Below the pieces are notes generated by a model, which was not told the DNA's origin, made no database searches, and saw only the letters and a list, made by a program, of their open reading frames with translations. Below are positions 6,497-49,769 of a stretch of DNA of 64,000 bases, in pieces; position 1 is the stretch's first letter; every line of letters begins with the position of its first letter. A program made the position numbers and the translations under genes. The stretch lies in IMG/VR virus record IMGVR_UViG_3300033070_001565; one strand, written 5' to 3'. This stretch comes from a virus (Duplodnaviria > Heunggongvirae > Uroviricota > Caudoviricetes).

Positions 6497-6503
6497 GCTA
6501 CAA

Positions 6504-9129: not shown

Positions 9130-9145
9130 GATATGATGCGAGTAC

Positions 9146-12886: not shown

Positions 12887-13331
12887 TCGTCCGGACTGGG
12901 ACAGCGTGTGGATGCATATGGCACAGACAATTGCTCTGAGGGCCTACGATGAGAAGCTGAAGGTGGGATCCGTAATCGTCTCTGACGATAACACACGGGT
13001 TCTTGCGATCGGGTACAATGGAAATTACAAAGGTGGTCCAAATACCCGAGATTCGTTGGAGCCCGGTCAGAGTGGAATGCTCCACAGCGAGCTAAATGCT
13101 CTGTTGAAACTGAACTATCACGATCCAGTTCGCAAGAAGTTGTATGTGACTTCATCTCCGTGCAAGGACTGTGCAAAATGTATCATACAATCAGCGATTG
13201 ATGAAGTGATATTCTTGAATGTCTTTGCACGAGATCCGAGCGGAATTAGCTTGCTTAGTTCGAACGGGATTAAAGTTAGACAACTGGTGACTACTTACTT
13301 GAGTGATCCTGAACAGAAAGAAGCTCATTGA
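12879..13331 (+). CDS. dCMP deaminase (cytidine/deoxycytidylate deaminase zinc-binding)
   Basis: HSELNAL (HxE) and SPCKDCAKC (PCxxC) motifs. Confidence 0.8.
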   Translation: MLDRPDWDSVWMHMAQTIALRAYDEKLKVGSVIVSDDNTRVLAIGYNGNYKGGPNTRDSLEPGQSGMLHSELNALLKLNYHDPVRKKLYVTSSPCKDCAKCIIQSAIDEVIFLNVFARDPSGISLLSSNGIKVRQLVTTYLSDPEQKEAH

Positions 13332-13560
13332 GGGCATACACACTGCGTACGTTAGCTCAAGGGGGAAACTGCTCGAAGCTCTGTCACTTCAGTCTGACAC
13401 TGCCAAGATTGCTCCAGGCTTGAAAGTATCGCACGAGAGTTCAGGTCTCAGATACGATGTAGTAATCGTCGGATCTGAGGGCGTGAAACTGCGCGCTCCC
13501 GATGGTGGAGAGTTCGTTGTGAGACGTCAAGATTTTGAAAGGGAGTACTCAATTGGCTGA
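13303..13560 (+). CDS. hypothetical protein
   Basis: ORF of 85 aa. Confidence 0.3.
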   Translation: MILNRKKLIEGIHTAYVSSRGKLLEALSLQSDTAKIAPGLKVSHESSGLRYDVVIVGSEGVKLRAPDGGEFVVRRQDFEREYSIG

Positions 13561-14245
13561 TATTAGAGACGTGATAGACATTGAGGAAGTGCTCAGAGAA
13601 GCGGGAGTACCTGTAAAGTCTCGTTCTAAGATTATTACAGAGGCAACTGTTGCGCAGCCGAAGAAATTTCGTGTTGCTAGCGAGTCTGTATCTCAGAATA
13701 CAAAAGACGAGCACGCAGAGCTCTATGAAATGTACGTAAACACGTACAACAAGCTTTCGATCGAACTCGACTCTGAGAAGTCAACAGGCATCAGAAAACG
13801 CGAGTTGAAAATCGATGAGACTTATAACAGAAACGGAATCTACCTCCACGAGCTGTATTTCGCGAATTCGTTTGACGTAAAGTCACAGATATTCGCAGAT
13901 ATGCTATGCTGCGTACGATTTGAGCGTGATTGGGGGAATTTCGACGCATGGCAGAGAGATTTCTTCTCTTGTGCAATGTCTGCGAGAGAGGGCTGGGCAT
14001 GCACTGGATACGGGTTGTGGGAGAAGAAGTACGTAAACTTCTTCATTGATGGTCACGATGCTCATGTTCCGCTAGGCATCATTCCCGTCCTTGTAATCGA
14101 CATGTGGACTCACGCGTCAAAGGATTATGGGAATAACAAGAAAGAGTACTTGACATCACAGCTCAAGGAAATTAATTGGGACGTTGTCGAAGAGCGTGTT
14201 CAAAAATGTGAAAAATTCGAGATCGCATTATGTCATACACTCTAA
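13535..14245 (+). CDS. Fe/Mn superoxide dismutase-like protein (start TTG or GTG, uncertain)
   Basis: DEHAELYEMYVNTYNKL, GIYLHELYFANSF and IDMWTHASKDYGNNKKEYL align with SOD ligand motifs (HHxKHH, HxxFW, DVWEHAYY), with partial ligand conservation. Confidence 0.45.
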   Translation: MKGSTQLADIRDVIDIEEVLREAGVPVKSRSKIITEATVAQPKKFRVASESVSQNTKDEHAELYEMYVNTYNKLSIELDSEKSTGIRKRELKIDETYNRNGIYLHELYFANSFDVKSQIFADMLCCVRFERDWGNFDAWQRDFFSCAMSAREGWACTGYGLWEKKYVNFFIDGHDAHVPLGIIPVLVIDMWTHASKDYGNNKKEYLTSQLKEINWDVVEERVQKCEKFEIALCHTL

Positions 14246-14694
14246 AAAATTTGATAGAAAGGGTTGATCCCGATCTCGGGCAGGGAAACGACTCTCTTGA
14301 TGCAGAGGTAGACCGTCTGCTAACGACATTCTTGCAAGATGCGAAATCAAAGCAGCTAGAATCTCGTTCTCGAATCAAAGAAGCAGAATCACGCAGATTC
14401 GAAAAGCCTGCAGATGGAAAGCAAAAGGGAATCGAGCAAGTCGACTGTGCAAGACTGGCACAGTCAATGCAGCGGCTTATCGAGTCTCCTGAAGATATGC
14501 TCGATCTCAAGGGTCTTGTACTAAGGAGGTGCGTATCTTTCATTTCTCAACGATACGATGAACCGACCGTTGAGGCTCTCAAAAGACAGCTTGCTCAGAG
14601 GGGCATAGATTTCAATGACGTACATGGAAATAATGCAGACCTTGAACATCCTGCTCCTAGGGCAGATCGAGCAGGCCCTGGCGGGGGCTTATGA
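14230..14694 (+). CDS. hypothetical protein
   Basis: ORF of 154 aa, charged and helical. Confidence 0.4.
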   Translation: MSYTLKNLIERVDPDLGQGNDSLDAEVDRLLTTFLQDAKSKQLESRSRIKEAESRRFEKPADGKQKGIEQVDCARLAQSMQRLIESPEDMLDLKGLVLRRCVSFISQRYDEPTVEALKRQLAQRGIDFNDVHGNNADLEHPAPRADRAGPGGGL

Positions 14695-14993
14695 AGCCTG
14701 ATTCGAATCTCGTAGAGGGAAATAAGATACTCAACGTTTCTGTTCCAATAACATGTTACGTTGAAGCACGAAAGAAGCTCGTTGAGAAAAAAATTCCATT
14801 TCAACGCGTCATCGCGCATTTCTTGTACGAGATATCGATCGGATCCTCTGAGGCAAACGAGATAATAGCGAGAACTCACGAAACAAGAGTCGAACAAAAA
14901 ATATCTGAATCAAGATTCAAACTTGATAACATGAATGATGAAGATATGAATTCGCTATATTCGTTGCTTGAAAAAGAACAGAGAAAAAGTTAG
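14691..14993 (+). CDS. hypothetical protein
   Basis: ORF of 100 aa with a 4-nt overlap. Confidence 0.4.
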   Translation: MKPDSNLVEGNKILNVSVPITCYVEARKKLVEKKIPFQRVIAHFLYEISIGSSEANEIIARTHETRVEQKISESRFKLDNMNDEDMNSLYSLLEKEQRKS

Positions 14994-15181
14994 AATACTG
15001 ATATGGCTGCCAAGAAAAAATCAAAAGAAGATACTCAAGTTGAACAGCTCACAGCTGAGATTATCAATCTCAAGGCAAAGATTCTCGCTCTTTTTAATTT
15101 GGCATCGGTCTCACAGCAAAATGATCTCAAACTTCTGCAGCTTTACTCGCAGCAGGCACAATCAAATATGCTGAAAACAAC

Positions 15182-15607
15182 GTGGCCAAAACTTGGTTCT
15201 CTTGGGAAGAGGGAAGAGTACAATTGATTGACTTCATAAAGCTAAAATGGAAACAGATCATGCAATGGGGAATCTTTGTTGCCGGGATTGTCGCTCTAAT
15301 TGCCGCTCGGCTCCTCGTAAAGAAGAGTTCTGATGATTTTAACTCTCAACTTGAAAAAAGCATTGAAAGTCACAGGCTCGAGCTCGAAAATCTGAGAATC
15401 TCTCTCGAGAGAGAGAGGGCAGAAAAAGAGCAAGCGCAGAAGCTATACGAGCAGCAAAAGGCAGACATCGAAAAGAAATACGCCGCAGAACTTGCAAGAT
15501 TGTCAGAAGCTGAGCGTGGAAGAATCGACGATCTCATAAAAGAAAACGCTTCAGATCCCGTGAGTCTTACAAAAAAATTGGCAGACATTTATGGATTCTC
15601 ACAGTGA
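15182..15607 (+). CDS. membrane-anchored coiled-coil protein (i-spanin-like architecture)
   Basis: N-terminal TM segment WGIFVAGIVALIAARLLV followed by a long coiled coil (ELENLRISLERERAEKEQAQ...). Confidence 0.35.
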   Translation: MAKTWFSWEEGRVQLIDFIKLKWKQIMQWGIFVAGIVALIAARLLVKKSSDDFNSQLEKSIESHRLELENLRISLERERAEKEQAQKLYEQQKADIEKKYAAELARLSEAERGRIDDLIKENASDPVSLTKKLADIYGFSQ

Positions 15608-22490: not shown

Positions 22491-23156
22491 ATGAAAACCA
22501 CTATTAAGTACATTGAAGAACACTGTGCCGGGTGCATTGTTCACAGAACTGGTGAAAATGGTACAGAGATCCTCATGATACAGCCTCAAGCAGGATCTGC
22601 ATGGGGACTTCCAAAAGGTCACATTGAAAGAAATGAGTCTTTTGAGACAGCCGCAATCCGAGAAACACGAGAGGAAACCGGTATAAAGGTAAAGATTAGC
22701 GGAACTGTACCGTTTCCGGCAGTGTTTCGAAACAGCAAATTGAAGAAAGAAGTATGGTTCTTTGTAGCAGAGCCCATTGATCCCAACGAAGCACTCGTTA
22801 ACTCTCACGAAACAGTGTGTGTTGCATGGTGGCCAATCTCAGCGCTTCCACCAATCCACGCATACCAACGCGGAGTTGTCGGGTGGTTCCTAGGGCAGCT
22901 CGATGCAAAAGAAATCCCTCATGCTCTTCCGATCGAAATCGAAAAGCAAATGCAAATTGCTGAAAATCTTTTTCCCCCTGACGTGAACTGGATGGAACTC
23001 AAGAAAGAAATCATGTTTCACAGTCCGATCCACGTGAGATGCTTCTTTTCGAGAAGAGATCCGAGAACAAAGAAGCAACGTATGAACTCTTTCGAGAAAT
23101 TGGTATCTGAGGGATGGAAAGCACGTACGGGAGAGTATCCCATATTCAGACCATAA
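22491..23156 (+). CDS. Nudix hydrolase
   Basis: Nudix box GLPKGHIERNESFETAAIRETREETGI. Confidence 0.8.
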   Translation: MKTTIKYIEEHCAGCIVHRTGENGTEILMIQPQAGSAWGLPKGHIERNESFETAAIRETREETGIKVKISGTVPFPAVFRNSKLKKEVWFFVAEPIDPNEALVNSHETVCVAWWPISALPPIHAYQRGVVGWFLGQLDAKEIPHALPIEIEKQMQIAENLFPPDVNWMELKKEIMFHSPIHVRCFFSRRDPRTKKQRMNSFEKLVSEGWKARTGEYPIFRP

Positions 23157-23166: not shown

Positions 23167-24156
23167 ATGCCATCTTTGATCGAACAATACGTAAAAGCCG
23201 TGATCGCTGAGGATAGCGTAGCGGCAGAGGCGGGTGTATCTGGCTACACAGCTGGAGGTGGTATGGGATATGGCGTACAGAGGCTAGGTGGGCCCTCTGT
23301 AGCCCAGATATTTCTCAAACCATTCGCCAATGCATTCAAAGTTGCGGCCTCTGAGGGTGGTCAGACGATCAGCAGAGTGATGTCTCTCATAAAAGCCCAG
23401 GTAGCGACTGTCATATCGAAAGATCTTGCTCTAGAGTACACAAAGATCTGGAAAGATCACGCAACAGCTGTACAGCAATTCAAGCAGAAATACGCGGAGG
23501 CATACAAAGATATCGATCGTGTTACGACAGGAAACGAAGATTTTCTTTTCGTTGCATTCATGCTCGAACCTGGCGCGATGCTTGCAAGTTACATTCTTCC
23601 AAAATCTCCAAAGGTAGGAGTATCAATCGCGAATTGGCTCTCGGGAGGATCTCTTGGGAAGCAATGGGAACGTGAGAAGAGAAATGTGCAGCAAGACATT
23701 GGTCATGCATCGTATCGTTCAAGGAGCGAAGAACTGTCGTTCTATGACTGGCTCAGAAAGAGAATGACGAGAGTATCAGACGTTCTCGATGACAGTCAGG
23801 TTGGATCTGAGATGGCGCACGATGCTCAGAGAATCATCAAAGAGCAAGCTCGAAGAATCAGAGAGATGGTCGTATCTGTCGCAGTTGCACAGACTCCACA
23901 AGATATCGTAAGGGCGCTGCATTCATCAAGACAGATCGATATGAGGGAGATCATCAAGACGCTTAGCGGAAAGATGAATCAGCAACAGATCGACGCTCAG
24001 ATGCTCCATGCAATGAAAGAATCTGTAAAAATGTACGTTCTCACTCAGATCAATACACACATCAAATCAGTTCGTGCAAGTGGAATGTCTGCAGACTCTT
24101 TGTATGTAAAGTCATATACGAAGCTATACCATGAGATTGAACAGGTGAAAATCTAA
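23167..24156 (+). CDS. hypothetical protein with YVKAVIAED N-terminal leader
   Basis: N-terminus is MPSLIEQYVKAVIAEDSV, the same leader class as the 8-paralogue family. Confidence 0.45.
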   Translation: MPSLIEQYVKAVIAEDSVAAEAGVSGYTAGGGMGYGVQRLGGPSVAQIFLKPFANAFKVAASEGGQTISRVMSLIKAQVATVISKDLALEYTKIWKDHATAVQQFKQKYAEAYKDIDRVTTGNEDFLFVAFMLEPGAMLASYILPKSPKVGVSIANWLSGGSLGKQWEREKRNVQQDIGHASYRSRSEELSFYDWLRKRMTRVSDVLDDSQVGSEMAHDAQRIIKEQARRIREMVVSVAVAQTPQDIVRALHSSRQIDMREIIKTLSGKMNQQQIDAQMLHAMKESVKMYVLTQINTHIKSVRASGMSADSLYVKSYTKLYHEIEQVKI

Positions 24157-24425: not shown

Positions 24426-25119
24426 GACGCTGGTAGGATTGAAGCTTACTAAGAAAGAGCTGAAATTTCTTTATAGGCTTTCATCGGTCTACGTTAATGA
24501 GAGTACTGCTGTGTCAGAGCTGCTTGCGCATTCTTTGAAGTGTACAAAATCAGAGCAAACTCTTGTTAACAAGATCGTCGAAGCATGTAAGAGATCGGGA
24601 ATTCCTGCAGGTCAGTCCGCACCTGATTTCTTGCTCGTTCCTAACGGGATTGTTCCTCTTGGAATCGTACAAGCAAAGAGAGAATTAACAGTGACAGTTC
24701 TGTCAATATCTCCTGGCGAGCTTGTATACGTTTACGAGCTCAAACGTGCTGCAATCATTCTCGGACTCTGTACAGAGCGTATCACACGGGAGAAAAAAGA
24801 TGGCACGCACACGTATCACACAGTTAAATTGCACGATCGTGCTCCGGTCGCACTTGAGGATCTCAAACCAGAAGAATTCTACTGGACGAAGGACAGAGAA
24901 GCATTCACGAATAAAATTCTGAGTATGGTGAAGGAAAAATTGAACGTCACAATAGATACTCAGACAGCTTCACTGAATGTGGGAGAAAACGATCACGAGA
25001 GTGATAATTTAACATGTGCCAAAACCACCAGAAGCCCCAGACGGCGCGCCCCTAGAAAAATGGGCGTGGGCGCCCCAACGCTCAGACGGTGTACCCGAGG
25101 AGGCGAATACCGAACATGA
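24391..25119 (+). CDS. hypothetical protein
   Basis: Internal Met start. The tail reads through a GC-rich island. Confidence 0.35.
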   Translation: MSTKKRSQRTSETLVGLKLTKKELKFLYRLSSVYVNESTAVSELLAHSLKCTKSEQTLVNKIVEACKRSGIPAGQSAPDFLLVPNGIVPLGIVQAKRELTVTVLSISPGELVYVYELKRAAIILGLCTERITREKKDGTHTYHTVKLHDRAPVALEDLKPEEFYWTKDREAFTNKILSMVKEKLNVTIDTQTASLNVGENDHESDNLTCAKTTRSPRRRAPRKMGVGAPTLRRCTRGGEYRT

Positions 25120-25612
25120 GAAACAGCTGCTAGGACAGATAGCAGCTTTTTTGAATTATTCGAAGCCACTTCCTCCAGAGACTATCAAAGAACTCAATAT
25201 GTACCTCAAAAAGGGCTGGTACAGAGGAGTGTTGAAAACGCCTGATTCCAAAAAAGTGTACAGAGGAATTTATTTGCCATCTGATTCATTCAGACAGGCT
25301 TACAGGATTCCTCCGGACGTTTCTGAGGGAGTGATTACAAACAATCAGTGGTACACCGCTCCAAATGGTTGTTCGTCATGGACAACGAATAAAACCGTTG
25401 CATCAATCGGCGCGAAACCAAGACCATTTCGCCCAGCACCAGGTCTTGCTCAGGTAGTTCTGCATGCTTATACAGCACAGAATCAATTCAAGTTCGTCGT
25501 TTGCAGATCGGGTCTCTATAAGATTGCTGGTCTTGATTCGAACGATGAAAAATCAGAGGTCATTGGACTCGGTAGAATCGAAATCTTCAAAATAGAGTAC
25601 GAGATTGGCTGA
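25016..25612 (+). CDS. hypothetical protein (GTG start or later Met)
   Basis: Product of 198 aa, upstream of the paralogue array. Confidence 0.35.
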   Translation: MPKPPEAPDGAPLEKWAWAPQRSDGVPEEANTEHEKQLLGQIAAFLNYSKPLPPETIKELNMYLKKGWYRGVLKTPDSKKVYRGIYLPSDSFRQAYRIPPDVSEGVITNNQWYTAPNGCSSWTTNKTVASIGAKPRPFRPAPGLAQVVLHAYTAQNQFKFVVCRSGLYKIAGLDSNDEKSEVIGLGRIEIFKIEYEIG

Positions 25613-26226
25613 TGTTCGAATCATACGTTCGTTCAATCGTCGAAGCTGCAGTCAAACCAATGCAAGCTGCCGAAAATGGTCTCGCTCTGTGCAAGAAGCA
25701 AGGCAGCATTACTCTGTACGATCCTGCAAAGCTCCTGAGCGATCCCACTGGCTCTCTCCCAAATATCGGTCAGTCTTATTCAAAAATTGTGATGGCTCAC
25801 TTGAAGTACGTAACGAAATCAGCGGGAGGTGAGAAACTCAATCAAGTAAAATCTGCAGCAGCGAAACACGGATACGGGCCCGTGATCTATGACGCTCTGC
25901 TGAATACAGGGTGGACAATGCCAGACAGACTCTCTGTATCTCACGAGGCCCTACGCGTTTGGAACTATTACGCGAATAAACGCGGAGATGTTTCGATGAA
26001 GCCTCTGCCTCCAGCATTCTGTGTACCAGATGATGATGTGTACAATGACGAACAGTTGAAACTCGTAAACTCTGCGTACTTTGTACCAGATCTACAATCG
26101 GGTTACTCTGAACTGATCGATGCGCACGAGGAATTTGTACGCGCTCTCCGTCCGTATCACACAGCAAATTCTGTCGAAACGTACCTGTCAAAGGCAGGAG
26201 ATCTTCTATTCGGTGAGCTGTACTGA
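25612..26226 (+). CDS. tandem paralogue 1 of 8 (YVRSIVEAAV leader; GYGPxxYD / PDRxSVS / RVWxYY core)
   Basis: MFESYVRSIVEAAV...HGYGPVIYD...PDRLSVSHEALRVWNYY. Confidence 0.6.
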   Translation: MFESYVRSIVEAAVKPMQAAENGLALCKKQGSITLYDPAKLLSDPTGSLPNIGQSYSKIVMAHLKYVTKSAGGEKLNQVKSAAAKHGYGPVIYDALLNTGWTMPDRLSVSHEALRVWNYYANKRGDVSMKPLPPAFCVPDDDVYNDEQLKLVNSAYFVPDLQSGYSELIDAHEEFVRALRPYHTANSVETYLSKAGDLLFGELY

Positions 26227-26846
26227 TGATCAACACTTATGTAAAGAGGATCGTAGAAGCAGCTGTACAACCCTCTCGTGCGCTTTCGGAGGGTCTCGCT
26301 CTTTGCTTCTCTCAACCACTTGATATTATCGTGCTGTACAAACCATCCGTGTTTGGAAATCCGGATGAAGGATTGCTGAAGACTTCACACAAGGGAGTTG
26401 TCTTTGGATACCTCTCGTACAGAGATAGAAGCGTTGACGATTATCACATCAGAGAGGTAACGGCCTCAGCAGCAACTCATGGGTATGGTCCGATTCTGTA
26501 CGATACTCTCCTACACAGTGGCTGGGCGATACCTGATCGCGGAAGCGTTTCAAAAGCAGCTCTCAGAGTTTGGGAGTATTACGCAAAATCACGACCCGAA
26601 ACTGTGATCAAGAAGATTCCAGATCCACTCAGAGATACGTCAGACAACTTGCAGTTTGATGAAAGAAAAAATCATCTTCTCAACTCAATGTACTCTCTCC
26701 CAAGCATTGATCAGAGATATGACGATCTGCTCGCAGAACACGAGAAATTCGTTGAGTCAATGCGTCGTTACAGACAACAGATCGTAATAGAGAAGAAGCT
26801 CGACGATCTTGGACAAGACTTCTTTGCGGAGAAATACAGTGGTTGA
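26226..26846 (+). CDS. tandem paralogue 2 of 8
   Basis: MINTYVKRIVEAAV...HGYGPILYD...PDRGSVSKAALRVWEYY, joined by an ATGA overlap. Confidence 0.6.
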   Translation: MINTYVKRIVEAAVQPSRALSEGLALCFSQPLDIIVLYKPSVFGNPDEGLLKTSHKGVVFGYLSYRDRSVDDYHIREVTASAATHGYGPILYDTLLHSGWAIPDRGSVSKAALRVWEYYAKSRPETVIKKIPDPLRDTSDNLQFDERKNHLLNSMYSLPSIDQRYDDLLAEHEKFVESMRRYRQQIVIEKKLDDLGQDFFAEKYSG

Positions 26847-27459
26847 GAGGTATGTACGTGCAATTGTTGAGAAGGCCATTGTACCAGAGAAGGCTCTGCA
26901 ACATGGTCTGTCACTCCTAAAAGGAAAGGACTGTCTGGTCCTCTACAATGGGTGGGAGGCCACCAACAGGGCCCGGGCCTCGAAGGGAGGTATTCCACCT
27001 GCCAGTGTCATTCCCATCATTGGATTCTTGCAGTGGTACGACCGCCTGGGCACTCCGGCAGTGAGAGAGATCAAAGCTTCGTTTGCAGTACACGGATGCG
27101 GACCGCTTCTTTACGATATTGCAATGTCTGGTTGCGAGTGGATGATGGCTGACAGATTTTCAGTTTCTGCAGCTGCAGAGCGTGTTTGGTTGTATTACTA
27201 CTCAAAACGTAGCGATGTTGAGCACGCTCCTCTTCCAGAGAAATATCAGAAAGATCCCGAAGAACTTACTGAGCGGGAGAGAACAGTTCTCAATTCGATG
27301 TATAGAATCAAAGACAAGATCGACTCACACGAACTTGAAGCTGCTCACAGAGATCACTGTGAAGAAATCGCGCGGATTTCTGGTGAGGCAGGAATAAGAA
27401 AATTCGAGAGACAGATTGTCCTCGCTGGCGAACAAAAGTTTTCGGATGCATTCACATGA
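26839..27459 (+). CDS. tandem paralogue 3 of 8 (GTG start)
   Basis: VVERYVRAIVEKAIV...HGCGPLLYD...RVWLYYY. Confidence 0.5.
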   Translation: MVERYVRAIVEKAIVPEKALQHGLSLLKGKDCLVLYNGWEATNRARASKGGIPPASVIPIIGFLQWYDRLGTPAVREIKASFAVHGCGPLLYDIAMSGCEWMMADRFSVSAAAERVWLYYYSKRSDVEHAPLPEKYQKDPEELTERERTVLNSMYRIKDKIDSHELEAAHRDHCEEIARISGEAGIRKFERQIVLAGEQKFSDAFT

Positions 27460-28073
27460 TTATCAAAGAAGCAGCTAGCACAATATCAGACGCAATAGGC
27501 GATGGTCTGGCACTGTACGATTCAGATCCTGGTAACATCAGCGCGAGTATTATTCTGTACGATCCGGTCATCGCTAGACTGAGACCGACCGCAGAGTGTA
27601 TTACTGCTTACGTTGGCGTCGATAATGATCCATACATTGCTGGAAGATTTGGGATGGTTTCGTCATCAGTGGCAGAGTCGGGTTATGGACCTCTGACGTA
27701 CGATTACGCTCTCTCGAGAGGATTCAAAATCATCTCTGACAGATCGTCAGTCTCGTCATCTGCTCAGAGAGTATGGGTGTACTACTATCTCAAGCGTAGC
27801 GATGTCATGAAACAGCGAATCATTGCTCCTGACACGAAACCGGTAATAAAGGCTTGGACATATCCATCTTACAAGATTGAAGATGACGATACGAGAGATG
27901 CTCTCAATCATGCTTACTGGATTCCGAACGGAGAGGAAAAATTCGTAGATCTCCTCGAGGCCCATGATACGCGTTTGAACAGTATCAAAGGTCAGGCAGC
28001 CAAGAGACAGTTCCTGCAGTCTCTCCGTAGTGCGGCACTGTCGTTTTTCCACGCTAATTACAAGGACGAGTGA
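27456..28073 (+). CDS. tandem paralogue 4 of 8 (diverged leader)
   Basis: MIIKEAASTISDAIGDGLALYD...SGYGPLTYD...RVWVYYY. Confidence 0.55.
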   Translation: MIIKEAASTISDAIGDGLALYDSDPGNISASIILYDPVIARLRPTAECITAYVGVDNDPYIAGRFGMVSSSVAESGYGPLTYDYALSRGFKIISDRSSVSSSAQRVWVYYYLKRSDVMKQRIIAPDTKPVIKAWTYPSYKIEDDDTRDALNHAYWIPNGEEKFVDLLEAHDTRLNSIKGQAAKRQFLQSLRSAALSFFHANYKDE

Positions 28074-28732
28074 TGTCTCTCCAAGCGTATGTAAGAAAAA
28101 TTGTCGAGGCGGCGCTGACATCATCTGATGCAGAGAGTTCAGGTCTTGCCCTTTGCGTTGTTAACAGAGACGGTACGCTTGCGATACTTTACAACGTTAG
28201 TAAAATGAAAGACGCTCTTTGGCATCACAAGGGAAGAGACGTTGACGCAATTGTCGGGATGATTCACGTAACTTCGGCTGAGTATAACGTTCATGGACCG
28301 AGTTACGGTGGGCTTGAGGTTGTGGCAGCTGCGGCGGAGAAAGGTTACGGCCCACTACTTTACGATTTTGCACTGAGTTTGGGAAAACCGATTATGCCAG
28401 ATCGTGAGTCGGTTTCGAAAAAAGCTTCTGCAATATGGGATTACTTCTATTCAAAGAGACCAGATGTCAAGAAACTGAGGCTTGACAACAAGTATGATCC
28501 AAAAACGCCAGACCCGTATGATGATTCGTGGTATCACAAAGAGACTGGAAAGGAGAATCCACTAAATTTCGCATACGTTGGCGAGGGAAATCCTTGCACG
28601 TCACTGATTGCTGCTCATGATCGTCTCTGCGAAACATTCGAACGTCTCGGTGTTTGCAAGAAAGAAAACTTTGTCAACCTACTGAAGATTGTTGGAGACA
28701 GATACTTCATTGGGAGATATAGACACGGATGA
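28073..28732 (+). CDS. tandem paralogue 5 of 8
   Basis: MSLQAYVRKIVEAAL...KGYGPLLYDFALS...IWDYFY...LRLDNKYDPKTPDPYDDS. Confidence 0.6.
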   Translation: MSLQAYVRKIVEAALTSSDAESSGLALCVVNRDGTLAILYNVSKMKDALWHHKGRDVDAIVGMIHVTSAEYNVHGPSYGGLEVVAAAAEKGYGPLLYDFALSLGKPIMPDRESVSKKASAIWDYFYSKRPDVKKLRLDNKYDPKTPDPYDDSWYHKETGKENPLNFAYVGEGNPCTSLIAAHDRLCETFERLGVCKKENFVNLLKIVGDRYFIGRYRHG

Positions 28733-29478
28733 TCGCTGAACAGTACATCAAAAGTCTCGTCGAGGCTGCAGTGACAGCAGACGCTGCGCAGTCTGCAGGA
28801 ATGGCTCTCATGATCACTGCCACTGGTGACAAGATGGATATTGTCCTCTATGATCCAAAGAAATTCTTGAGATTTGCGCAAGAGAATCTTCAAGGGGAGG
28901 ACGCGCATTCTGATTCAGACTGTAGCGATTGCATCTATGGCCATGTTCAGATGAGACCTGTACCGCAGAGTTATGGACAGAGCTATGGAGCCTATGTCAT
29001 CAATACGACGTCGTCTCTCAAGGGATACGGTCCTCTCATGTACGATATTGCTCTTGGGCTGGGTCGACCCGTAATACCAGACCGTTCATCTGTTTCTCCC
29101 GCTGCGAAGAAGATCTGGACAGTTTACAAACTCAATCGTTCAGATGTGAAGAAGCTTCCACTGGATAACAAGGACGCTCCAAGAACGCCTGATCCAAAAG
29201 ACGATTCTGTCATTTATCCTGGCGATGACGAGCTCACGAATCCGCTCAACTTTGCGTACATCCGTCCGGGTTCGAACGCACAGTACTCCGGAATGCTCGA
29301 GAAGCACAGGAAAGTTGCGAGAATCGTGACGGCAAAGGTCCCAAGCATCACTGTGAAAGACGTTGAAGAGATGCTGAGACACGGTGGCGGAGAGTTCTTC
29401 TTCAGGAGATACGCAAGTGAAAACTTACGTGAAGCTCATTGTAGAGGCTGCAATGGGAGTCGACTCTGCAGCCTCTGA
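28729..29478 (+). CDS. tandem paralogue 6 of 8 (no stop at the family end, reads about 60 nt into the next copy)
   Basis: MIAEQYIKSLVEAAV...KGYGPLMYD...LPLDNKDAPRTPDPKDDS...FFFRRY, then an extension. Confidence 0.55.
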   Translation: MIAEQYIKSLVEAAVTADAAQSAGMALMITATGDKMDIVLYDPKKFLRFAQENLQGEDAHSDSDCSDCIYGHVQMRPVPQSYGQSYGAYVINTTSSLKGYGPLMYDIALGLGRPVIPDRSSVSPAAKKIWTVYKLNRSDVKKLPLDNKDAPRTPDPKDDSVIYPGDDELTNPLNFAYIRPGSNAQYSGMLEKHRKVARIVTAKVPSITVKDVEEMLRHGGGEFFFRRYASENLREAHCRGCNGSRLCSL

Positions 29479-30079
29479 GGGATACGCCCTCTATTCGAAC
29501 GACTATGGTCGAGGTCAGACAGCACTCCTGTACGATCCCGAATACGTGTGGAGAGTCTCGTCTTCTGGAAAGCTCCCACAACAATCCTCGGGACCCGTAG
29601 TTGCGTATATCAACACGCGGAAGAGAGAGAATATCAAGGGTCACATGTACGGAGCTCGCGCAATTGCGTCTGCAGCTGCTCGTAAGGGATGGGGACCCAT
29701 GCTGTACGATTTCATCATCTCTTCAGGAAAAGTCGCACCAGATCGTCTCTCTGTTTCATCTAGCGCAGAGTCTGTTTGGTCGTATTACAAAAACAAGCGT
29801 CCTGATGTAGAAAAAGAGAAGATAGACAATGTTCTCGCACCGAAGACACCGACACCAGTCGACGATGGCGAGGTCTATGATAAGGGAAGTGATGAGAATC
29901 CTCTCAATTACGTGTACTCAATGAAATCAGATATCGCGAGTCAGTACTCTCCGCTCATCAGATCTCACAGCGAATTTTGCGATAGGATGCAGCAGAAGAG
30001 AGGAATCTCACGAGATGATCTCGAAGCGTACCTCAAGAAGTGCGGAAGCATGTTCTTCATGAAGAAATACGAAGGATAA
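29417..30079 (+). CDS. tandem paralogue 7 of 8 (GTG start)
   Basis: VKTYVKLIVEAAMG...KGWGPMLYD...VWSYYKNKRPDV. Confidence 0.5.
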   Translation: MKTYVKLIVEAAMGVDSAASEGYALYSNDYGRGQTALLYDPEYVWRVSSSGKLPQQSSGPVVAYINTRKRENIKGHMYGARAIASAAARKGWGPMLYDFIISSGKVAPDRLSVSSSAESVWSYYKNKRPDVEKEKIDNVLAPKTPTPVDDGEVYDKGSDENPLNYVYSMKSDIASQYSPLIRSHSEFCDRMQQKRGISRDDLEAYLKKCGSMFFMKKYEG

Positions 30080-30080
30080 A

Positions 30081-30773
30081 ATGATCGGGTCTTATGTCAA
30101 ACGTCTCGTTGAAGCTGCACTCGGAATCGACTCTGCACTAGCTGCAGGTCTTGCACTCTGTGTAAATAAAGGTTCAGGTGGAGCTTACATTGTGCTTTAC
30201 GATGCAAAGGAGTACGTTAAACACGCTCTTGCGAATGCGAAACACATTGGCGAAATGACAGATCCCCGTACGGCTGAATGTGTGTACGGGTTTATCAGAA
30301 TGCATGTGGTCGATCCAAGCAACGGAGAGAGTTACGGTTCATACGAGATTGCGAACTCAGTTGCAAGGAAAGGGTACGGACCGTTCATGTACGATGTTGC
30401 AATGAGTCTTGGAAAACCCGTCATATCAGATCGCGGATCTGTTTCTCCAGATGCACAAAAAATTTGGAAATACTACAAAGATAACAGATCTGACGTGAAG
30501 AAGCTTCCGCTCGATAACAAATCTGCACCGAGAACACCAGAAACTTTTGATGACTCGATTGTATTTGACGCCGGAAAGGAATCTGAACTCACGAACCCTC
30601 TTAATTTTGCATATAAGAGTGGTGGAATCGATTTTTCAAAATTGACTCAGAGACACGAAAAAGTCTTGCAGCTGCTGAAAACGAAAATACCAGAACTGAC
30701 TCCTGACAGAGTAGAGTCAAGTCTTAATCATTTTGCTGAAGATTACTTCATCAAGAGATATCACGGAGTCTGA
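30081..30773 (+). CDS. tandem paralogue 8 of 8
   Basis: MIGSYVKRLVEAAL...KGYGPFMYD...LPLDNKSAPRTPETFDDS. Confidence 0.6.
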   Translation: MIGSYVKRLVEAALGIDSALAAGLALCVNKGSGGAYIVLYDAKEYVKHALANAKHIGEMTDPRTAECVYGFIRMHVVDPSNGESYGSYEIANSVARKGYGPFMYDVAMSLGKPVISDRGSVSPDAQKIWKYYKDNRSDVKKLPLDNKSAPRTPETFDDSIVFDAGKESELTNPLNFAYKSGGIDFSKLTQRHEKVLQLLKTKIPELTPDRVESSLNHFAEDYFIKRYHGV

Positions 30774-32597: not shown

Positions 32598-33139
32598 AAC
32601 TTGCTCCTCATCGGTACTGTTTTATTCTGCTTCTTTGGCATTACCGTCGTCTTTGCGGCGGGTTGCTTAATACGCTCCTGTACTGGAGCTCGCGATTTTA
32701 CGGGATCGGCTGGTGGTTGACCGGGACCGTGAGGCGTTTCAGGTACCGGTTTTTCCATGGCAGGGTGTGGCTCTTTTGTCTGAGTTGGCGTCGCCTCTGT
32801 CGAATCTTCTGCAGGGGCGTGATTCACTGCATGCGCCCTGTATGCTAGCGCGAATGCGTAGAGCGCATCATCAGCCGTTCCACCCAGCTTTTCAAATTCT
32901 GCAGTGTACTTTGCTATGAGCTTATCAATCTCTGCAGTCATCTTCTTCGCGGCATTCGAACGAGCTCGCGAGACATACTTGTTTTGCATGTCAACGTGCA
33001 GTCCTCGTACCATGTCTGACGCCGCACCGAGAAGCGCTCTGACATCGAATTCTTTGATGAGCTGAGCTCTCGCAGCTTCTCTTATGATCTGTTCGACACT
33101 CGGTTCGAGTTTGTGCATGTATTTATGTATATGACACAA
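32594..33139 (-). CDS. hypothetical protein
   Basis: Product of 181 aa with a 4-nt overlap with the downstream minus-strand gene. Confidence 0.4.
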   Translation of the reverse strand: MCHIHKYMHKLEPSVEQIIREAARAQLIKEFDVRALLGAASDMVRGLHVDMQNKYVSRARSNAAKKMTAEIDKLIAKYTAEFEKLGGTADDALYAFALAYRAHAVNHAPAEDSTEATPTQTKEPHPAMEKPVPETPHGPGQPPADPVKSRAPVQERIKQPAAKTTVMPKKQNKTVPMRSKL

Positions 33140-33922
33140 CCTGTGCTAGGTGGGTATAAAAGTGATTCAGCGTCAGCAACTGGTTCTGGCGGTCTATATA
33201 CGAGCGCGACAGAGCTAGCTCCGCTTGCAAGCTCGATTGATGGAGCAGAAATCGATCTCCGCAAGTGGGACTCTCCCGTAGAGAGACAGTTGAGGACGAG
33301 CTCTTGCACTGCGAATGCAACAGTTGCAGATCTCGAGCATCTCAGAATTGCGGCAGGAAAGTCGCACGTTGATCTCTCGAGACTCTTTCTCTATTACAAT
33401 GCTCGAGCGCAGCATCAGGCCACGTCGATTGACGATGGAACGTACATCTCGCTCGCATTTGACACACTGAGAACTCTTGGAACCTGTAGAGAGGCAACGT
33501 GGGCATTCGATCAGAGCAGAGTGAATGTGAGACCCTCATGGGACTCGTACAGAGAGGCCTACACGCACAAGATCTCTGAATTCTACAGAATTCAGGACAC
33601 AGACTCTGAGAAATTCAGACTCATTGATGAGTCACTTCGCCGGGGCCATCCGATTGTATTCGGGTGCACAGTCGATGAGGTCTTCATCAAGGGCACTGGG
33701 TCATCCGGTATTGTCGCTCCTCCCGCAAAGGTCAGAGTGAACACAGGAGGGCACGCAATGCTCATTGTTGGTAAGCTTAGATCCGGATGCTACATTGTCA
33801 AGAACTCATGGGGGACTGACTGGGGTGACGAGGGATACTGCTACATGCCTCAGGCATACCTATCAGAGGAGAATGCACATGATTTTTGGGTTTCGACAAT
33901 CGGATGGGAAAATGCTTCGTAA
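33113..33922 (+). CDS. papain-like (C1 family) cysteine peptidase
   Basis: Cys candidate in RTSSCTANATVADLEHL. The His/Asn region GGHAMLIVGKL...IVKNSWGTDWGDEGYCYM matches the papain signature. Confidence 0.65.
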   Translation: MHVFMYMTQPVLGGYKSDSASATGSGGLYTSATELAPLASSIDGAEIDLRKWDSPVERQLRTSSCTANATVADLEHLRIAAGKSHVDLSRLFLYYNARAQHQATSIDDGTYISLAFDTLRTLGTCREATWAFDQSRVNVRPSWDSYREAYTHKISEFYRIQDTDSEKFRLIDESLRRGHPIVFGCTVDEVFIKGTGSSGIVAPPAKVRVNTGGHAMLIVGKLRSGCYIVKNSWGTDWGDEGYCYMPQAYLSEENAHDFWVSTIGWENAS

Positions 33923-37211: not shown

Positions 37212-38129
37212 ATGAATATCCGATCAAATCTGATTGCGGCCATTCTCGCTATCTCGTCTCTCATGACAGCTGGCTGCGATACAGACGATGTTCCTGCCTC
37301 ACATGTTGGCAGGAAGTTTGCGCGTACTGGTGCAGCTGCACTGTACCTTGGCGATACTGGCTTCGTAGGAGGCATTCTTCCTCCTGGAACCTATTACACG
37401 GGTCTGTACGATGAGATTCGTCTCGTGGAATGCGGTCAGCAGACGAAGAAAGAGACAATGCAAGCCCTCACAAAGGATGGGGTGCAGTTCAACATTGATC
37501 TCTATATCTCATTTGGGATTAAGTGCGATGATCCTAAAACTGTCGCAAAGCTCTTCTCGACTGTTGGACCTGCGCCCACTCAAGCTGGAAATCCTTCGAA
37601 GTACATTATGGGCAGTCAGATGTACGATATCTTCTTGAAGCCATCGCTTTCTGAAGCCGTACGCTCTGCTGTGTCTCCCTACATTGCAAATGCGATCAAT
37701 GCCTCACGCGAGGAGATCTTCAAGTCAATCCGCGATCAGTTCACACTTTCTCTCAAAACTCGTGGAGATGAATTCGTAACCGTACACCAGATCTCGATGT
37801 CGAATCTCGATTTTCCAGATGCAATGGACACTGCGAATACAGATCGTGCCGTTCAAGATGTTCTGAAAGACAAAGCCGTTGCAGAACGTGCGAGGGTCGA
37901 GGCAGAGATTGAGACGACCGTCATGAGGAAGAAGCTCTCTGCATCAAAGGGCGAAGCCATTGCAGCTGAGATTGACGCTGTTGGTGCTGCCCTCTCACGT
38001 CACCCTGAGTACACAAACTACATGCTCTACCAATCTCTACCTGATGTCTACATCAAAGCAGCAGAAAAGGGGAACATGGTGATCGCCGCTCCAAATCCGT
38101 ATACCATTACACCGAAGGTGAAGTTATGA
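37212..38129 (+). CDS. SPFH/band-7-like lipoprotein
   Basis: LMTAGC lipobox and an Ala/Glu-rich coiled-coil tail KAVAERARVEAEIE. Confidence 0.45.
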   Translation: MNIRSNLIAAILAISSLMTAGCDTDDVPASHVGRKFARTGAAALYLGDTGFVGGILPPGTYYTGLYDEIRLVECGQQTKKETMQALTKDGVQFNIDLYISFGIKCDDPKTVAKLFSTVGPAPTQAGNPSKYIMGSQMYDIFLKPSLSEAVRSAVSPYIANAINASREEIFKSIRDQFTLSLKTRGDEFVTVHQISMSNLDFPDAMDTANTDRAVQDVLKDKAVAERARVEAEIETTVMRKKLSASKGEAIAAEIDAVGAALSRHPEYTNYMLYQSLPDVYIKAAEKGNMVIAAPNPYTITPKVKL

Positions 38130-40802: not shown

Positions 40803-42413
40803 ATGCAAGAACATGAAACAGAGCTCCCGAGCCAGAACACGGCACAGGGACCAACCCGTGTGCTCTTTGGAGACGAAGCTCGCGCAGCAGTACTCGTTGG
40901 CGTTGAGATTGCTGGCCGCGCAGTCGGCGCGACCATGGGCCCCGGTGGCCGCACAGTCATCATCGAAAATAAGGGGAAGTCACCAACCGTAACAAAGGAC
41001 GGAGTGACAGTATGTGGGTTTGTGAACCCCAGAGACCCCTTTGCGCGGCTTGGGGCTGACTTGGTGAAGGAAGCAGCGCAGAAGACGAATGAGATTGCGG
41101 GAGATGGAACGACGACGGCATCTGTCCTTGCCTCTGCACTCTGTACCCGTGCGAGGAAGCATCTCTCTGTTGGAGTAGATCCCGTTGCTCTGAGAACAGG
41201 ATACGAGAAGGCTGCTCAAATCGCTCTCGAATATGTTGAGAAGCTAGCTCGACCCGTACAGACGAATGAGGATCTTGCACACGTTGCGAGGATCTCTGCG
41301 AATGGTGATAAGTTCGTCGGAGATCTCGTTGCACGTGCTCTTGCAAGGGTTGGAGCTCACGGAATCGTCACTGTAGAAGAATCACGTGGGGTACAGACAG
41401 AGCTCGAGGTTGTTGCGGGTACCCGGATTGATAGAGGGTATGCATCGCCGTATTTTGTGACATCTGGATCCGATCGTACGGCGAGACTTGAGCAGCCATT
41501 CGTCTTTCTCACAGACAGAAAGATCACGTCTTTCAAGGAGATTATGACAATTCTCGAGCACGTGAATAACTCGAGACGCTCCCTTCTCATTGTCGCAGAT
41601 GATTACGATTCTGATGTTTTGCAGGCTCTCGTTCTCAACAAAACACGTGGGGGATTGAAGGTATGCGCGATTAAGGCCCCCGCGGCTGGAGTGATCAGAG
41701 CCCAGCTTCTCGAGGATCTTGCGGTGCTTACTGGAGCTACAGTACTCATGGGGTCTGATAGCTGGGAGAGTCTAAAGCCCGATCACCTGGGTCAGTGCGA
41801 AACAGTCGTTGTCGATGCAAAGAAAACGACATTCATAAGAGGAAAGGGTACTCCAGAAGCGATTGCAGGAAGAGTTGCCGATCTCACTCTCAGAGTGAAT
41901 AATCCTGTTCTTACAGACATGGAGAGGAACTTTGTGAGAGGCAGACTTGCAGGATTGACTGCGGGAATTGGAGTTATCAAAGTCGGAGGGTACACTGATG
42001 TTGAGATCGGTGAACTCAAGCATCGCATTGAGGATGCTCTCAATGCAGCTCTCGGTGCTGCTGCTCAGGGAGTTGTTCCTGGAGGTGGAAGAGTACTCCA
42101 GCTCGCTTCAGGGGTCGTAAGTGCAGCGCGCAGACTGAACGATAACGAGGATGAGGCACTCGGAATGGCACAGTTTGCAGATGCTCTCCTCGATCCTGCA
42201 CGCAAGATTCTTGAAAATGCCGGGATGAAGACGATCGTATTTGACACTGAAGATGAGTGGTCGACTTACGATATCTCAGCAAAGAAAGCCGTGAATGCCT
42301 ACACTGCAGGTCTTCTCGATTCTGCGCGGGTTACTCTGGCTGCAATTGCAAATGCAACATCGGTTGCAAAGGCATTCGTATCTCTCGATGTTGCAATCAT
42401 CTCAGAGACATAA
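40803..42413 (+). CDS. groL: chaperonin GroEL (Cpn60)
   Basis: ATMGPGGRTVII, TKDGVTV and AGDGTTTASVLA motifs. Full length is 536 aa and the GGM tail is absent. Confidence 0.9.
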   Translation: MQEHETELPSQNTAQGPTRVLFGDEARAAVLVGVEIAGRAVGATMGPGGRTVIIENKGKSPTVTKDGVTVCGFVNPRDPFARLGADLVKEAAQKTNEIAGDGTTTASVLASALCTRARKHLSVGVDPVALRTGYEKAAQIALEYVEKLARPVQTNEDLAHVARISANGDKFVGDLVARALARVGAHGIVTVEESRGVQTELEVVAGTRIDRGYASPYFVTSGSDRTARLEQPFVFLTDRKITSFKEIMTILEHVNNSRRSLLIVADDYDSDVLQALVLNKTRGGLKVCAIKAPAAGVIRAQLLEDLAVLTGATVLMGSDSWESLKPDHLGQCETVVVDAKKTTFIRGKGTPEAIAGRVADLTLRVNNPVLTDMERNFVRGRLAGLTAGIGVIKVGGYTDVEIGELKHRIEDALNAALGAAAQGVVPGGGRVLQLASGVVSAARRLNDNEDEALGMAQFADALLDPARKILENAGMKTIVFDTEDEWSTYDISAKKAVNAYTAGLLDSARVTLAAIANATSVAKAFVSLDVAIISET

Positions 42414-47420: not shown

Positions 47421-49148
47421 ATGAGCTATCTCCGTGAGTATATTCGTCTTTGCATTCCAGAAATTCTGATAGAGGGTCGGCTCGAGGATGCAAAGGCGAA
47501 GTATCGCAAGAGACTCAGTCCTTCAACAATCGACGGTCTTGCAAGTCACGATCCAACTCCAAACAAGAAATATCTTGATTGGATGTGTAGAGAGCTAGCT
47601 CTTGCAGGAGAAGCATCAGGCAGAGTATTCGACATTACAGCGACTGCAAACGAGTGGGAGAGGGTTGGAAGCAATCTTCCAGAACGAGACATTTACAAGC
47701 TCACTGCAAAAGAAGCAGAGGATGCTCTCAAGGATTACGATGCAAAGCAAGCCGGCAAGAGAAAGCAGAGATACAAAGATGTTTCAGGAGCTGCTTTCGT
47801 AGGCGAGACCGACGAGCACATTGTGTATCACATTACCACTCACGCGGCAGCCCAGGCGCTTGGAACTGGAACGAAGTGGTGCATCACAATGTCTACAGAT
47901 CAGTACTGGAAGATGTATACAAACGGATCGAATGGCGACGCAAGATTTTATTTCTTGATACCCAAATCAAGCACTGCTGTCAAGTACGCACTGCTCGTTG
48001 AACGGTATCCAACAGACCCGCCAATCTTCAGATTCGAAGCGTACAATCCTCCAGATGAGAATCTTGGAGACAGCGAGCTACCAGAGATTGTAGCTGCAAA
48101 ACCAATTGTGCGGAGACACTTCGCTGCAACGGGAGGACCTCTCAAACTGACTTCGATGGAAGCAGCTGAGAAGACGATCTACCGTGCAAGCGAGCAAGGA
48201 TACGATATTACGTTCGATGCTCTCAACACCGTCGAGCCCTCACCAAATGAATCGCCTTCTCGCATGTATAGTGTTGGAATCGCAATCAACAACAAAGTTC
48301 ACACGCTCGATGATAGAAAGGCGATGCTTGATCGTGCAAAGACTCCCGAGGCCAGAAGGATCATCGAATTCTATCTTACGCACACAAAGAAAAATGATCT
48401 CATAAACATTGTAGGAGTTGAGAGACTCAATGCACTGCTCGCGAATCCCGATACTCTGAAGGCTCTAAAGGCAGTAGGGCTAGCTGAGCAGATGATGAGT
48501 GCGAACGAACTCATTACGGGTGAGCTCATTCCATTCGTGACAGCTGTCGATGATTTCCCAAGTCAGAGAGTGAACGAGCTCGTTCTTGAGTACGCAGCTT
48601 CAAGTATTCCTCAGCTTAACTGGATTGCTGCTGCATATCTTCCTGTGTGTAGGGACATATGGAAACAGTGCAGAACTGTAACAGACTCGCCGGCAGTTAA
48701 GGGCTGCGCAGATATGCTCATCAATGCTCGACTTGGTGATCTCCCTGATTGCATCCCGCCAGTTGAGGATTATTTCAGAGACACAATTATGAACTCGCGA
48801 GTTGCTCTCATGCACCAGAAGCTACCAAAGCATGCAATGTCAGTTCGCGCATTCGCGGCAAATGTTGCGAATGTTTACTTTCAGCGTGTTAACGAACTGT
48901 ACACGCCGGCAGATGCACTAGCGACAGTAAATGATGCAATGGTACACTTCAGGAAGAACCCACGTACAATTGAGTACTTCAACTATTTCGCGGACATTCA
49001 GCAGAGATACATTGCGGCCTGGAAGGCCGGCCACAAGTACGGATTAGTGCTGCATCTTTCTGCGCCAGAAAGCATCCTCGGCACGTTGAGCCAGTTTCGC
49101 GTTCAGGGCTCCGATCGGATTTCCTCCGCCCCATCCCGATTTTGCTAG
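47421..49148 (+). CDS. large paralogue 2
   Basis: MSYLREYIRLCIPEILIEGRLEDAKAKY...EAEDALKDYDAKQAGKRKQRY. Confidence 0.55.
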   Translation: MSYLREYIRLCIPEILIEGRLEDAKAKYRKRLSPSTIDGLASHDPTPNKKYLDWMCRELALAGEASGRVFDITATANEWERVGSNLPERDIYKLTAKEAEDALKDYDAKQAGKRKQRYKDVSGAAFVGETDEHIVYHITTHAAAQALGTGTKWCITMSTDQYWKMYTNGSNGDARFYFLIPKSSTAVKYALLVERYPTDPPIFRFEAYNPPDENLGDSELPEIVAAKPIVRRHFAATGGPLKLTSMEAAEKTIYRASEQGYDITFDALNTVEPSPNESPSRMYSVGIAINNKVHTLDDRKAMLDRAKTPEARRIIEFYLTHTKKNDLINIVGVERLNALLANPDTLKALKAVGLAEQMMSANELITGELIPFVTAVDDFPSQRVNELVLEYAASSIPQLNWIAAAYLPVCRDIWKQCRTVTDSPAVKGCADMLINARLGDLPDCIPPVEDYFRDTIMNSRVALMHQKLPKHAMSVRAFAANVANVYFQRVNELYTPADALATVNDAMVHFRKNPRTIEYFNYFADIQQRYIAAWKAGHKYGLVLHLSAPESILGTLSQFRVQGSDRISSAPSRFC

Positions 49149-49769
49149 CAACTTACCAGCTTGTTGCAGCGTCTGCTTGTGTGCAGCTTGAAAACTCTGA
49201 AGCGCTTCTTTATCTCCTGGCATGCTATACGAGTAGTTTAGAGAGTCGCTTCCCTGCCCACCGTAGAGGCGAGAATCATCATTGGGATCCTTTGTCTTGG
49301 GAGCCTGCATGTTATCAAGAGCTTTCTTTGGAGTGTTGTCCTGAAACCTCTTCTGCCAGTGAGACTTTGCATCTCCTGTCATTGACGCTCTGTCAGAGAT
49401 CAGAGTTCCATTTGGAGCTAGAGCGAATGCAAGTGCATACATTCCTCCGATCTCGTTCGTTGTCTTTGCGATCTTGGTAACCTCCCAAGCACCATTCGAT
49501 GGACCGTCTCCGGCAGACTTTGCAAGCGTTATTTCGATTGCTCCCCGCATGCACTCTAGAGCACAGTCTTCAATAGCTTCTGCAATATCTGCTTTTGACT
49601 GAATTGCCCGTTGGATGCCCTGAAGAAGCACCTTCGGATCATACAGAGCGCAGATTCTCTGATTTCCCCCGTTCTGAAATGCAACATAGGCGGCGAGACC
49701 CTCGCCACCCTTGATAGCTTCTGTCAGAACGATTGTTCTGACGAACTTTGCCAGATTCGTAAGTTTCAC
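49044..49769 (-). CDS. diverged ninth member of the 8-paralogue family (reverse strand, GTG start)
   Basis: KFVRTIVLTEAIKG leader-like N-terminus plus GMYALAFALA...SDRASMTGDAKSHWQKRF...KKALDNMQAPKTKDPNDDS. Confidence 0.45.
   Translation of the reverse strand: MKLTNLAKFVRTIVLTEAIKGGEGLAAYVAFQNGGNQRICALYDPKVLLQGIQRAIQSKADIAEAIEDCALECMRGAIEITLAKSAGDGPSNGAWEVTKIAKTTNEIGGMYALAFALAPNGTLISDRASMTGDAKSHWQKRFQDNTPKKALDNMQAPKTKDPNDDSRLYGGQGSDSLNYSYSMPGDKEALQSFQAAHKQTLQQAGKLLAKSGWGGGNPIGALNAKLAQRAEDAFWRRKMQH

Follow-up and report, generated by a model that had tools for sequence, protein, structure and literature searches.

Tandem GNAT-like genes with a T4-like N-terminal leader in an uncultured giant phage: candidate capsid-targeted cargo

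Co-injected phage proteins act before phage gene expression, and they include anti-restriction and host-takeover factors. Injected proteins have so far been found phage by phage via proteomics. In T4, internal proteins are tagged by a capsid-targeting sequence (CTS), which consists of their first 10 residues, MKTYQEFIAE (PMC8442874), and the internal proteins of T-even phages have nothing but the CTS in common (PMC3012670). Residues 4 and 7 of the T4 CTS serve targeting and residues 8 and 10 serve processing, with gp21 cleaving after the Glu of L/I-X-E (PMC9026906). Deployment from the capsid has been predicted for GNAT domains, and for solo GNATs whose genes adjoin late structural genes (Iyer et al. 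2017, PMC5512222). The idea of diversifying internal proteins with a CTS, and of GNAT or ADP-ribosyltransferase effectors delivered by the capsid, is known already (PMC3012670, PMC5512222, PMC7824862). Here we describe nine paralogous genes (c1-c9) in a 64,000-nucleotide (nt) stretch, hereafter the window, of the Caudoviricetes record IMGVR_UViG_3300033070_001565, which comes from an uncultured giant phage. Their products share a short leader that resembles the T4 CTS. We give a probability of about one half to the reading that these proteins are CTS-tagged cargo, which would be loaded into the prohead, trimmed and ejected with the DNA, and would act as GNAT-like enzymes on host targets.

The nine genes and their relatives

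An earlier note on this DNA had described eight tandem genes and a ninth copy on the opposite strand, and all nine open reading frames (ORFs) were recovered. The tandem genes lie on the + strand: c1 at 25612..26226 (204 residues, aa), c2 at 26226..26846 (206 aa), c3 at 26839..27459 (206 aa), c4 at 27456..28073 (205 aa), c5 at 28073..28732 (219 aa), c6 at 28729..29478 (249 aa), c7 at 29417..30079 (220 aa) and c8 at 30081..30773 (230 aa). The diverged copy c9 (241 aa) lies on the - strand at 49044..49769. Three starts required a decision. The start of c3 is most likely GTG 26839 (TTG 26809 in the ORF list), as in the orthologue P0013, which begins MVKSYVRAIVEKA. That of c7 is most likely GTG 29417, as in the orthologue P0010, with AGGAG 8 nt upstream. 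For c5, which we compared with P0001, we used ATG 28073, and GTG 28070 is possible too.

The genes had been described as linked by a 4-nt overlap. Their tight coupling holds, and the junctions are more varied than that. We observed 4-nt ATGA overlaps at c3/c4 and c5/c6, and 1-nt TGATG overlaps at c1/c2, c4/c5 and between c1 and the gene upstream of it (25016..25612, +). The c2/c3 overlap is 8 nt (GTGGTTGA), the c6/c7 overlap is 62 nt, and c7 and c8 are separated by a 1-nt gap. The 62 nt shared by c6 and the c7 leader (29417-29478) encode, in the other frame, the 21-residue, Cys-rich C-terminal tail of c6, ASENLREAHCRGCNGSRLCSL. A c6/c7 overlap also exists in L001, a 255-kb metagenomic contig (47 nt).

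In a nine-way alignment, the tandem copies were 30-40% identical and c9 was 19% identical, with 14 invariant columns. Every c1-c8 pair was significant by blastp (E 6e-7 to 9e-70, database size 1e6). c9 matched c5-c8 at 1e-7 to 1e-15 and c4 weakly (0.004). A family hidden Markov model (HMM) run over the six frames of the window found exactly nine members, and the flanking genes were ruled out as family members by both blastp and the HMM. These data confirm the homology of the nine copies that the earlier note had proposed, and the motifs it quoted are present on the alignment. Of the nine, c5-c9 have the L-D-N..P-[KR]-T-P..D-D block, which has degenerated in c1-c4.

In L001, c1-c8 all have counterparts, and the gene order is unchanged. 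Identity between each of c1-c8 and its positional orthologue in L001 was 63-87%, compared to 28-47% between paralogues. Because orthologue identity far exceeds paralogue identity, the duplications are old and each copy has been retained. The isolated c9 may have moved to its present site. It overlaps by 4 nt a 347-aa ORF (49766-50809, -) that matches phrog_10081, annotated as a transposase (7e-15). Upstream of this transposase-like ORF, the ORF at 50688-51737 (-) has a K-L-H-G-S-N motif and by eye looks like an Rnl2-type RNA ligase.

To place the family more widely, we ran an exhaustive profile search against 1.84 billion representatives, which returned 2,553 proteins (representative clusters) at E<=1e-3, 225 of them at E<=1e-30; a word-indexed homologue search returned close relatives only (7 and 8 matches). 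A scan of IMG/VR gave 151 matching stretches, which fall at 76 loci; the contigs are as long as 398 kb. The number of family copies per 20-kb locus ranged from 1 to 9. In a rough neighbour-joining tree, the six full-length copies of one locus (L032) formed a single clade, which points to an expansion independent of that in the window. A degenerate DNA pattern for G-Y-G-P-L-x-Y-D-I matched 2 of 185,579 species genomes, both metagenome-assembled: one match is a solo member and the other is a single domain inside a protein of >2,082 aa. The family is restricted to phages and almost absent from cellular genomes. In L086, a metagenome-assembled Peribacteria genome, the bacterial protein of >2,082 aa with its single core also has a cNMP-binding domain.

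A separable leader that resembles the T4 tag

The leader consensus over an alignment of 134 family members is L-L-R-E-Y-I-R-L-L-x-E-A-A. At P1, 123 of 124 sequences have Glu; P3 is occupied by L (72), I (35), V (8) or M (5), and P1'-P2' are mostly A-A. All nine window copies fit an L/I-X-E ending of the tag. The leaders are MFESYVRSIVE in c1 (25612-25644, followed by the GNAT-like domain), MINTYVKRIVE in c2, M-VERYVRAIVE followed by KA in c3, MSLQAYVRKIVE in c5, MIAEQYIKSLVE in c6, MKTYVKLIVE in c7 and MIGSYVKRLVE in c8. c4 has a truncated leader, MIIKE, which retains I-x-E followed by AA, and c9 has a longer one, MKLTNLAKFVRTIVLTE, followed by AI.

The leader behaves as a module in its own right. 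It is better conserved than the domains downstream of it and is strictly N-terminal. Its codons differ synonymously among c1-c8, which argues for selection on the peptide rather than on the DNA and rules out conservation at the nucleotide level. In an AlphaFold2 model of c8 built from the 134-sequence alignment (pLDDT 92.2, pTM 0.89), the leader is the only part of low confidence, with residues 1-5 under 50 and residues 1-10 averaging 50. We then scored N-termini outside the family with a leader-only position-specific scoring matrix (PSSM). At a threshold of at least 10 bits, 36 of 1,236 non-family N-termini matched, compared to 33 of 18,040 internal windows (odds ratio 16, Fisher p 5e-25). 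The non-family matches fall into 10 unrelated clusters plus 11 singletons at 18 loci and include a NUDIX and a HAD-like hydrolase. The NUDIX protein of L017 itself starts with the leader MSLLRSYISLIVE. In L046 (IMGVR_UViG_3300020442_000005, 273 kb), 15 of 30 consecutive genes begin MK[NHY]LR[QR]YIR..LL.E. Positions 137-15350 of this contig form an island of ~20 consecutive genes, 15 of them tagged, in which nine family members stand alongside unrelated proteins. The leader is therefore a separable module common to unrelated proteins. The shared leader noticed at the outset thus gained substance: it is unpacked in the model, absent from some members, present on unrelated proteins, and it ends in a gp21-type motif, like the T4 CTS. 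The string LLREYIR found no mention in the literature searched.

The resemblance to T4 is closest in c7, whose MKTYVKLIVE shares residues 1-4, 8 and 10 with MKTYQEFIAE and has a hydrophobic residue at position 7. On the family PSSM, trained without T4, the T4 CTS scored +9.2 bits in register; among random 10-mers, a fraction of 4.5e-5 does as well. As in T4, a tag of ~10 residues stands at the N-terminus of unrelated proteins and ends in L/I-x-E followed by a small residue. The tagged genes, again as in T4, form multi-gene diversifying sets. Where the head modules of carriers were captured, they were T4-type, with genes for a gp20 portal, an S77 protease and a gp23 capsid protein. The gene order in L012, L014 and L016 is gp20-like portal, Peptidase_S77 protease (3e-23), Gp23 capsid (2e-74), family gene and more leader-tagged ORFs; the protease gene of L016 is at 2946-3554. 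In L005, L015, L022 and L031, the stretch between gp13 and the gp15/sheath genes contains two or three copies of the family, and clustering identified T4-type head and protease genes in L052 and L071. A gene between those for the protease and the scaffold encodes a small protein whose N-terminus is similar.

There are also differences from T4. The mature domains are unrelated to the T4 internal proteins, larger (21-26 kDa), enzymatic-looking and not basic. The family consensus LLREYIRxLLxE departs from the T4 CTS at its middle positions, and the tag is on far more genes per genome (15/30 in one 20-kb stretch).

Giant phages of the phiKZ group (phiKZ, 201phi2-1, SPN3US) offer a parallel: their ejection and inner-body proteins form tandem families of paralogues inside the head, and a gp21-related protease trims them after Glu. 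The motif cut in these phages is S/A-X-E (PMC9026906), while P3 in the family studied here is L/I/V. A phiKZ-type motif was ruled out for the family, as the four commonest P3 residues (L, I, V and M) account for 120 of 124 sequences, with no S, A or G among them. The two sets of proteins show no relation in sequence or fold, and no RNA polymerase or nucleus genes typical of the phiKZ group were seen.

Fold, proposed mechanism and alternatives

The c8 model has a mixed alpha/beta fold with the beta4-alpha3-beta5-alpha4 core of GNAT proteins. Fold matches include AcrVA5 (an anti-CRISPR GNAT), MprF and acyl-homoserine lactone synthases. Members of the GNAT fold also use aminoacyl-tRNA or acyl-acyl carrier protein. 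Foldseek against the PDB gave no significant match, and a fold search of BFVD gave a single relative. By sequence, Pfam, PHROGs and NCBIfam scans of the nine copies gave no usable match, nor did a PDB sequence search with the profiles A1 and A2 give any; Pfam on the 134 aligned members gave nothing usable (one Acetyltransf_1 match, E 0.13). Comparison with two classical GNAT domains by hhalign was not significant (E 0.11 and 0.6). In the alignment at E 0.11, A-R-K-G-Y-G of the family faces Q-R-R-G-W-A of motif A. This motif has the form Q/R-x-x-G-x-G/A and belongs to the beta4-alpha3 loop of GNATs. In its register, the family reads A-[RKE]-[KH]-G-[YFW]-G-P, with G-x-G kept and Q/R replaced by Ala.

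All of c1-c8 retain the G-x-G-P loop (G-C-G-P in c3), Y-D, D-R, S, A, W, Y and R, and the loop, D-R, S, W, Y and R are near-invariant over the 134 diverse members. c9 does not have the loop, Y-D, R136 or D138, and c1-c4 do not have the otherwise near-invariant L-D-D..P-K-T-P..D-D block. We take the family to have a remote, derived GNAT-like fold that has probably retained acyl-donor binding, with a putative acyltransferase activity. The earlier note had suggested looking for a GNAT-like or an ADP-ribosyltransferase-like site. The first was found as a fold, albeit a remote one with no significant sequence or profile match; no site of the second kind was seen in the family itself.

The core is also reused outside single-domain proteins. 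A 1,367-aa relative, P0015 (L008, JGI 3300018080, 124-kb contig, 10001-14104), contains three copies of it (HMM positions about 66-165, which we call the catalytic core) plus classical GNAT and HNH domains. The P0015 gene adjoins Acb2/Tad1-like and DarA_C-like genes. In joining three family cores to classical GNAT domains, this relative resembles the polyvalent proteins, which, like T4 Alt and other capsid-delivered effectors, are enzymes loaded in the head and injected to modify host proteins. The window proteins, in contrast to these, are single-domain, and they belong to no described RimI-like GNAT family, with no Pfam match and two weak LPD16 matches. Rac of phiKMV-like phages and AcrVA5 have no sequence similarity to the family and, in contrast to it, are made after infection, leaderless and single-copy.

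We propose a mechanism in two parts. First, an N-terminal propeptide of 5-17 residues (L-L-R-E-Y-I-R-L-L-x-E) would act as a T4-like CTS that docks the protein on the scaffold core of the prohead during its assembly. Cleavage after the near-invariant Glu of L/I-x-E, by a gp21-type prohead protease (Peptidase_S77), would leave a mature protein that begins A-A-V/I. Second, this mature protein would be a 21-26 kDa remote GNAT (acyl-CoA N-acyltransferase) domain with its G-x-G-P loop at the position of the cofactor-binding motif A. It would remain in the head with the DNA, enter the next host and acylate host targets. Each of the old, individually conserved paralogues would have a different target; the conserved multiplicity, together with the independent expansions, suggests that targets have diversified.

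Several observations weigh against this mechanism. The neighbours of the array in the window are enzyme genes and not structural or head genes, and look-ups outward from the window edges gave only replication genes and small ORFs, and neither head genes nor a protease. The motif L/I-x-E is short, the mature proteins lack a basic character, and the GNAT assignment is remote, with no significant sequence or profile match to a GNAT family in Pfam, NCBIfam or the PDB. Leaderless members also exist, and they start M-P-A exactly at the Glu position (position 11). One of them lies only 10 nt from the preceding gene, so that it can have no hidden leader.

Some of these points would fit cytoplasmic GNAT-like enzymes at work in the infected cell, with metabolites, host proteins (after de novo synthesis) or, as for Mom, hypermodified phage DNA as possible substrates. 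The N-terminal helix would then be an oligomerisation, regulatory or partner-binding element. We consider this unlikely. The array is set among enzyme genes, leaderless members occur, and DNA-modifying GNAT-superfamily enzymes such as Mom are known in jumbo phages (PMC7824862). In addition, the window has a possible DNA base hypermodification module (8026-12886, +), in which a thymidylate-synthase homologue (11876-12886, +), two NDP-sugar (nucleoside diphosphate sugar) epimerases (8026-9129 and 10906-11979, +) and a 687-aa kinase-like protein (9146-11209, +) could form a pathway. Against a cytoplasmic role stand the same leader on unrelated folds (NUDIX, HAD) and the nature of this leader, which is more conserved than its domains, strictly N-terminal, unpacked in the model and terminated by a protease motif. 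The genes are inside head and neck modules in other phages, and a single metabolic step poorly explains nine conserved paralogues.

The near-invariant G-x-G-P, D-R, S, W, Y and R across the 134 members and c1-c8 form a pattern typical of active sites, and the core is reused beside classical GNAT domains in the 1,367-aa polyvalent-type protein. Both observations argue against a somewhat less probable alternative, in which the family members are leader-packaged but non-catalytic internal head proteins, either inert or scaffold-accessory, or stoichiometric inhibitors like T4 IPI*, with the GNAT-like fold as a mere scaffold. This alternative has a precedent, as IPI* is a non-enzymatic inhibitor delivered via the CTS (PMC3012670, PMC9026906). 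It is also in keeping with the weak GNAT similarity, with the missing putative cofactor loop of c9 and with the missing P-K-T-P..D-D block of c1-c4.

A different sorting signal, which would send the proteins to the membrane, a replication compartment or a secretion route and not to the prohead, is improbable in our view. The leader is a short amphipathic helix, modelled as a helix at residues 3-8, and its link to the capsid is drawn from sequence. Against another destination stand the constant Glu and its L/I at P3, the fact that the T4 CTS scores positively, the T4-type protease of the carriers and the similar N-terminus of the small protein encoded between the protease and scaffold genes. 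Phage-carried GNAT toxins of the toxin-antitoxin type (TacT/KacT-like) are very improbable, because the copies abut or overlap by 1-8 nt with no antitoxin-sized genes between them, there are nine of them, and the family is almost absent from cellular genomes.

The earlier note had suggested a virion-packaged effector family of the anti-restriction or anti-defence type. The leader evidence supports packaging, short of proof. The anti-restriction or anti-defence function received no direct support; what bears on it is the analogy with T4 internal proteins, the AcrVA5 fold match and one relative beside Acb2/Tad1-like and DarA-like genes. For the cargo model as a whole, relatives offer circumstantial support: P0015 with its three cores, classical GNAT domains and Acb2/Tad1-like and DarA_C-like neighbours, and the leader on homologues of the gene upstream of c1.

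Genomic setting and implications

Other genes of the window carry the leader or are coupled to the array. A tandem pair of 575-aa paralogues (45682-47412 and 47421-49148, +) from outside the family has the same type of leader (MRALREYIRLHIQDILVEG and MSYLREYIRLCIPEILIEG), which makes both candidates for further tagged cargo; Pfam gave no credible match for them. A 329-aa protein, also unrelated to the family (23167..24156, +), begins with the leader-like MPSLIEQYVKAVIAED. The gene upstream of c1, again unrelated, belongs to a small family with invariant YRG / SWT / E-V motifs. Its homologues P0161 and L025:6630-7283 carry an LLREYIR-type leader, and the N-terminus of the window copy differs. 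We rejected an assignment of this gene as an ADP-ribosyltransferase, since it showed only a motif resemblance to the R-S-E triad and its AlphaFold model was too poor (pLDDT 49.9). A NUDIX hydrolase gene (22491-23156, +) recurs close to the family (cluster 6 in 9 loci, plus the window).

Among the genes of the window are those for a DnaE-type polymerase, GroEL, a DinG/XPD-like helicase and an AAA protein, along with genes of nucleotide metabolism. Among deposited phages (INPHARED), we found no match by blastn of the array or by tblastn of c8, P0025 and the family consensus, and relatives of the DnaE polymerase were just 27-31% identical. Syntenic genes of L001 are annotated as a papain-like peptidase (Peptidase_C1) and Band_7/SPFH; their positional counterparts in the window are 33113-33922 and 37212-38129 (+). 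Together with the full-length GroEL (40803-42413, +), these are accessory genes unusual in phage.

G+C is uniform along the array. GC skew flips sign at ~48-49 kb, which gives two convergent transcription blocks with c9 as the last gene of the - block. The ~12 kb at 51700-64000 (-) contain dozens of ORFs of 57-144 aa without database matches. A scan for the T4 late promoter TATAAATA gave 0 sites, a sigma-70 promoter scan was no better than chance, and a tRNA scan found none. Terminator-like sites were ~2x more frequent than in shuffled sequence (24 vs a shuffle mean of 12.1), and none delimits the array.

Three aspects of these data appear to be new. One is the large GNAT-like family itself, for which our searches of Pfam, PHROGs and NCBIfam gave no match. 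Another is a second CTS consensus, in far wider use, among uncultured T4-type and jumbo phages, and the last is the occurrence of tagged genes in arrays at a scale not reported for T4. We tentatively suggest that a tag of about M-x-L-L-R-E-Y-I-R-x-L-L-x-E defines 'injectome' islands in uncultured T4-type and jumbo phages. The tag would mark tens of unrelated enzymes per genome, and its commonest cargo would be the GNAT-like family, amplified time and again into arrays that reach nine genes. In that case, the proteins that a phage injects could be read straight from its genome, and with this family a major class of injected host-modifying enzymes would have gone unrecognised. A short defined tag could also load foreign cargo into capsids, as the T4 CTS already does. 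If the leader is a true CTS, the proteins injected by thousands of uncultured T4-type and jumbo phages could be listed from sequence, and the GNAT-like family, with its 2,553 representative clusters, would be a prime candidate for new host- or defence-modifying enzymes.

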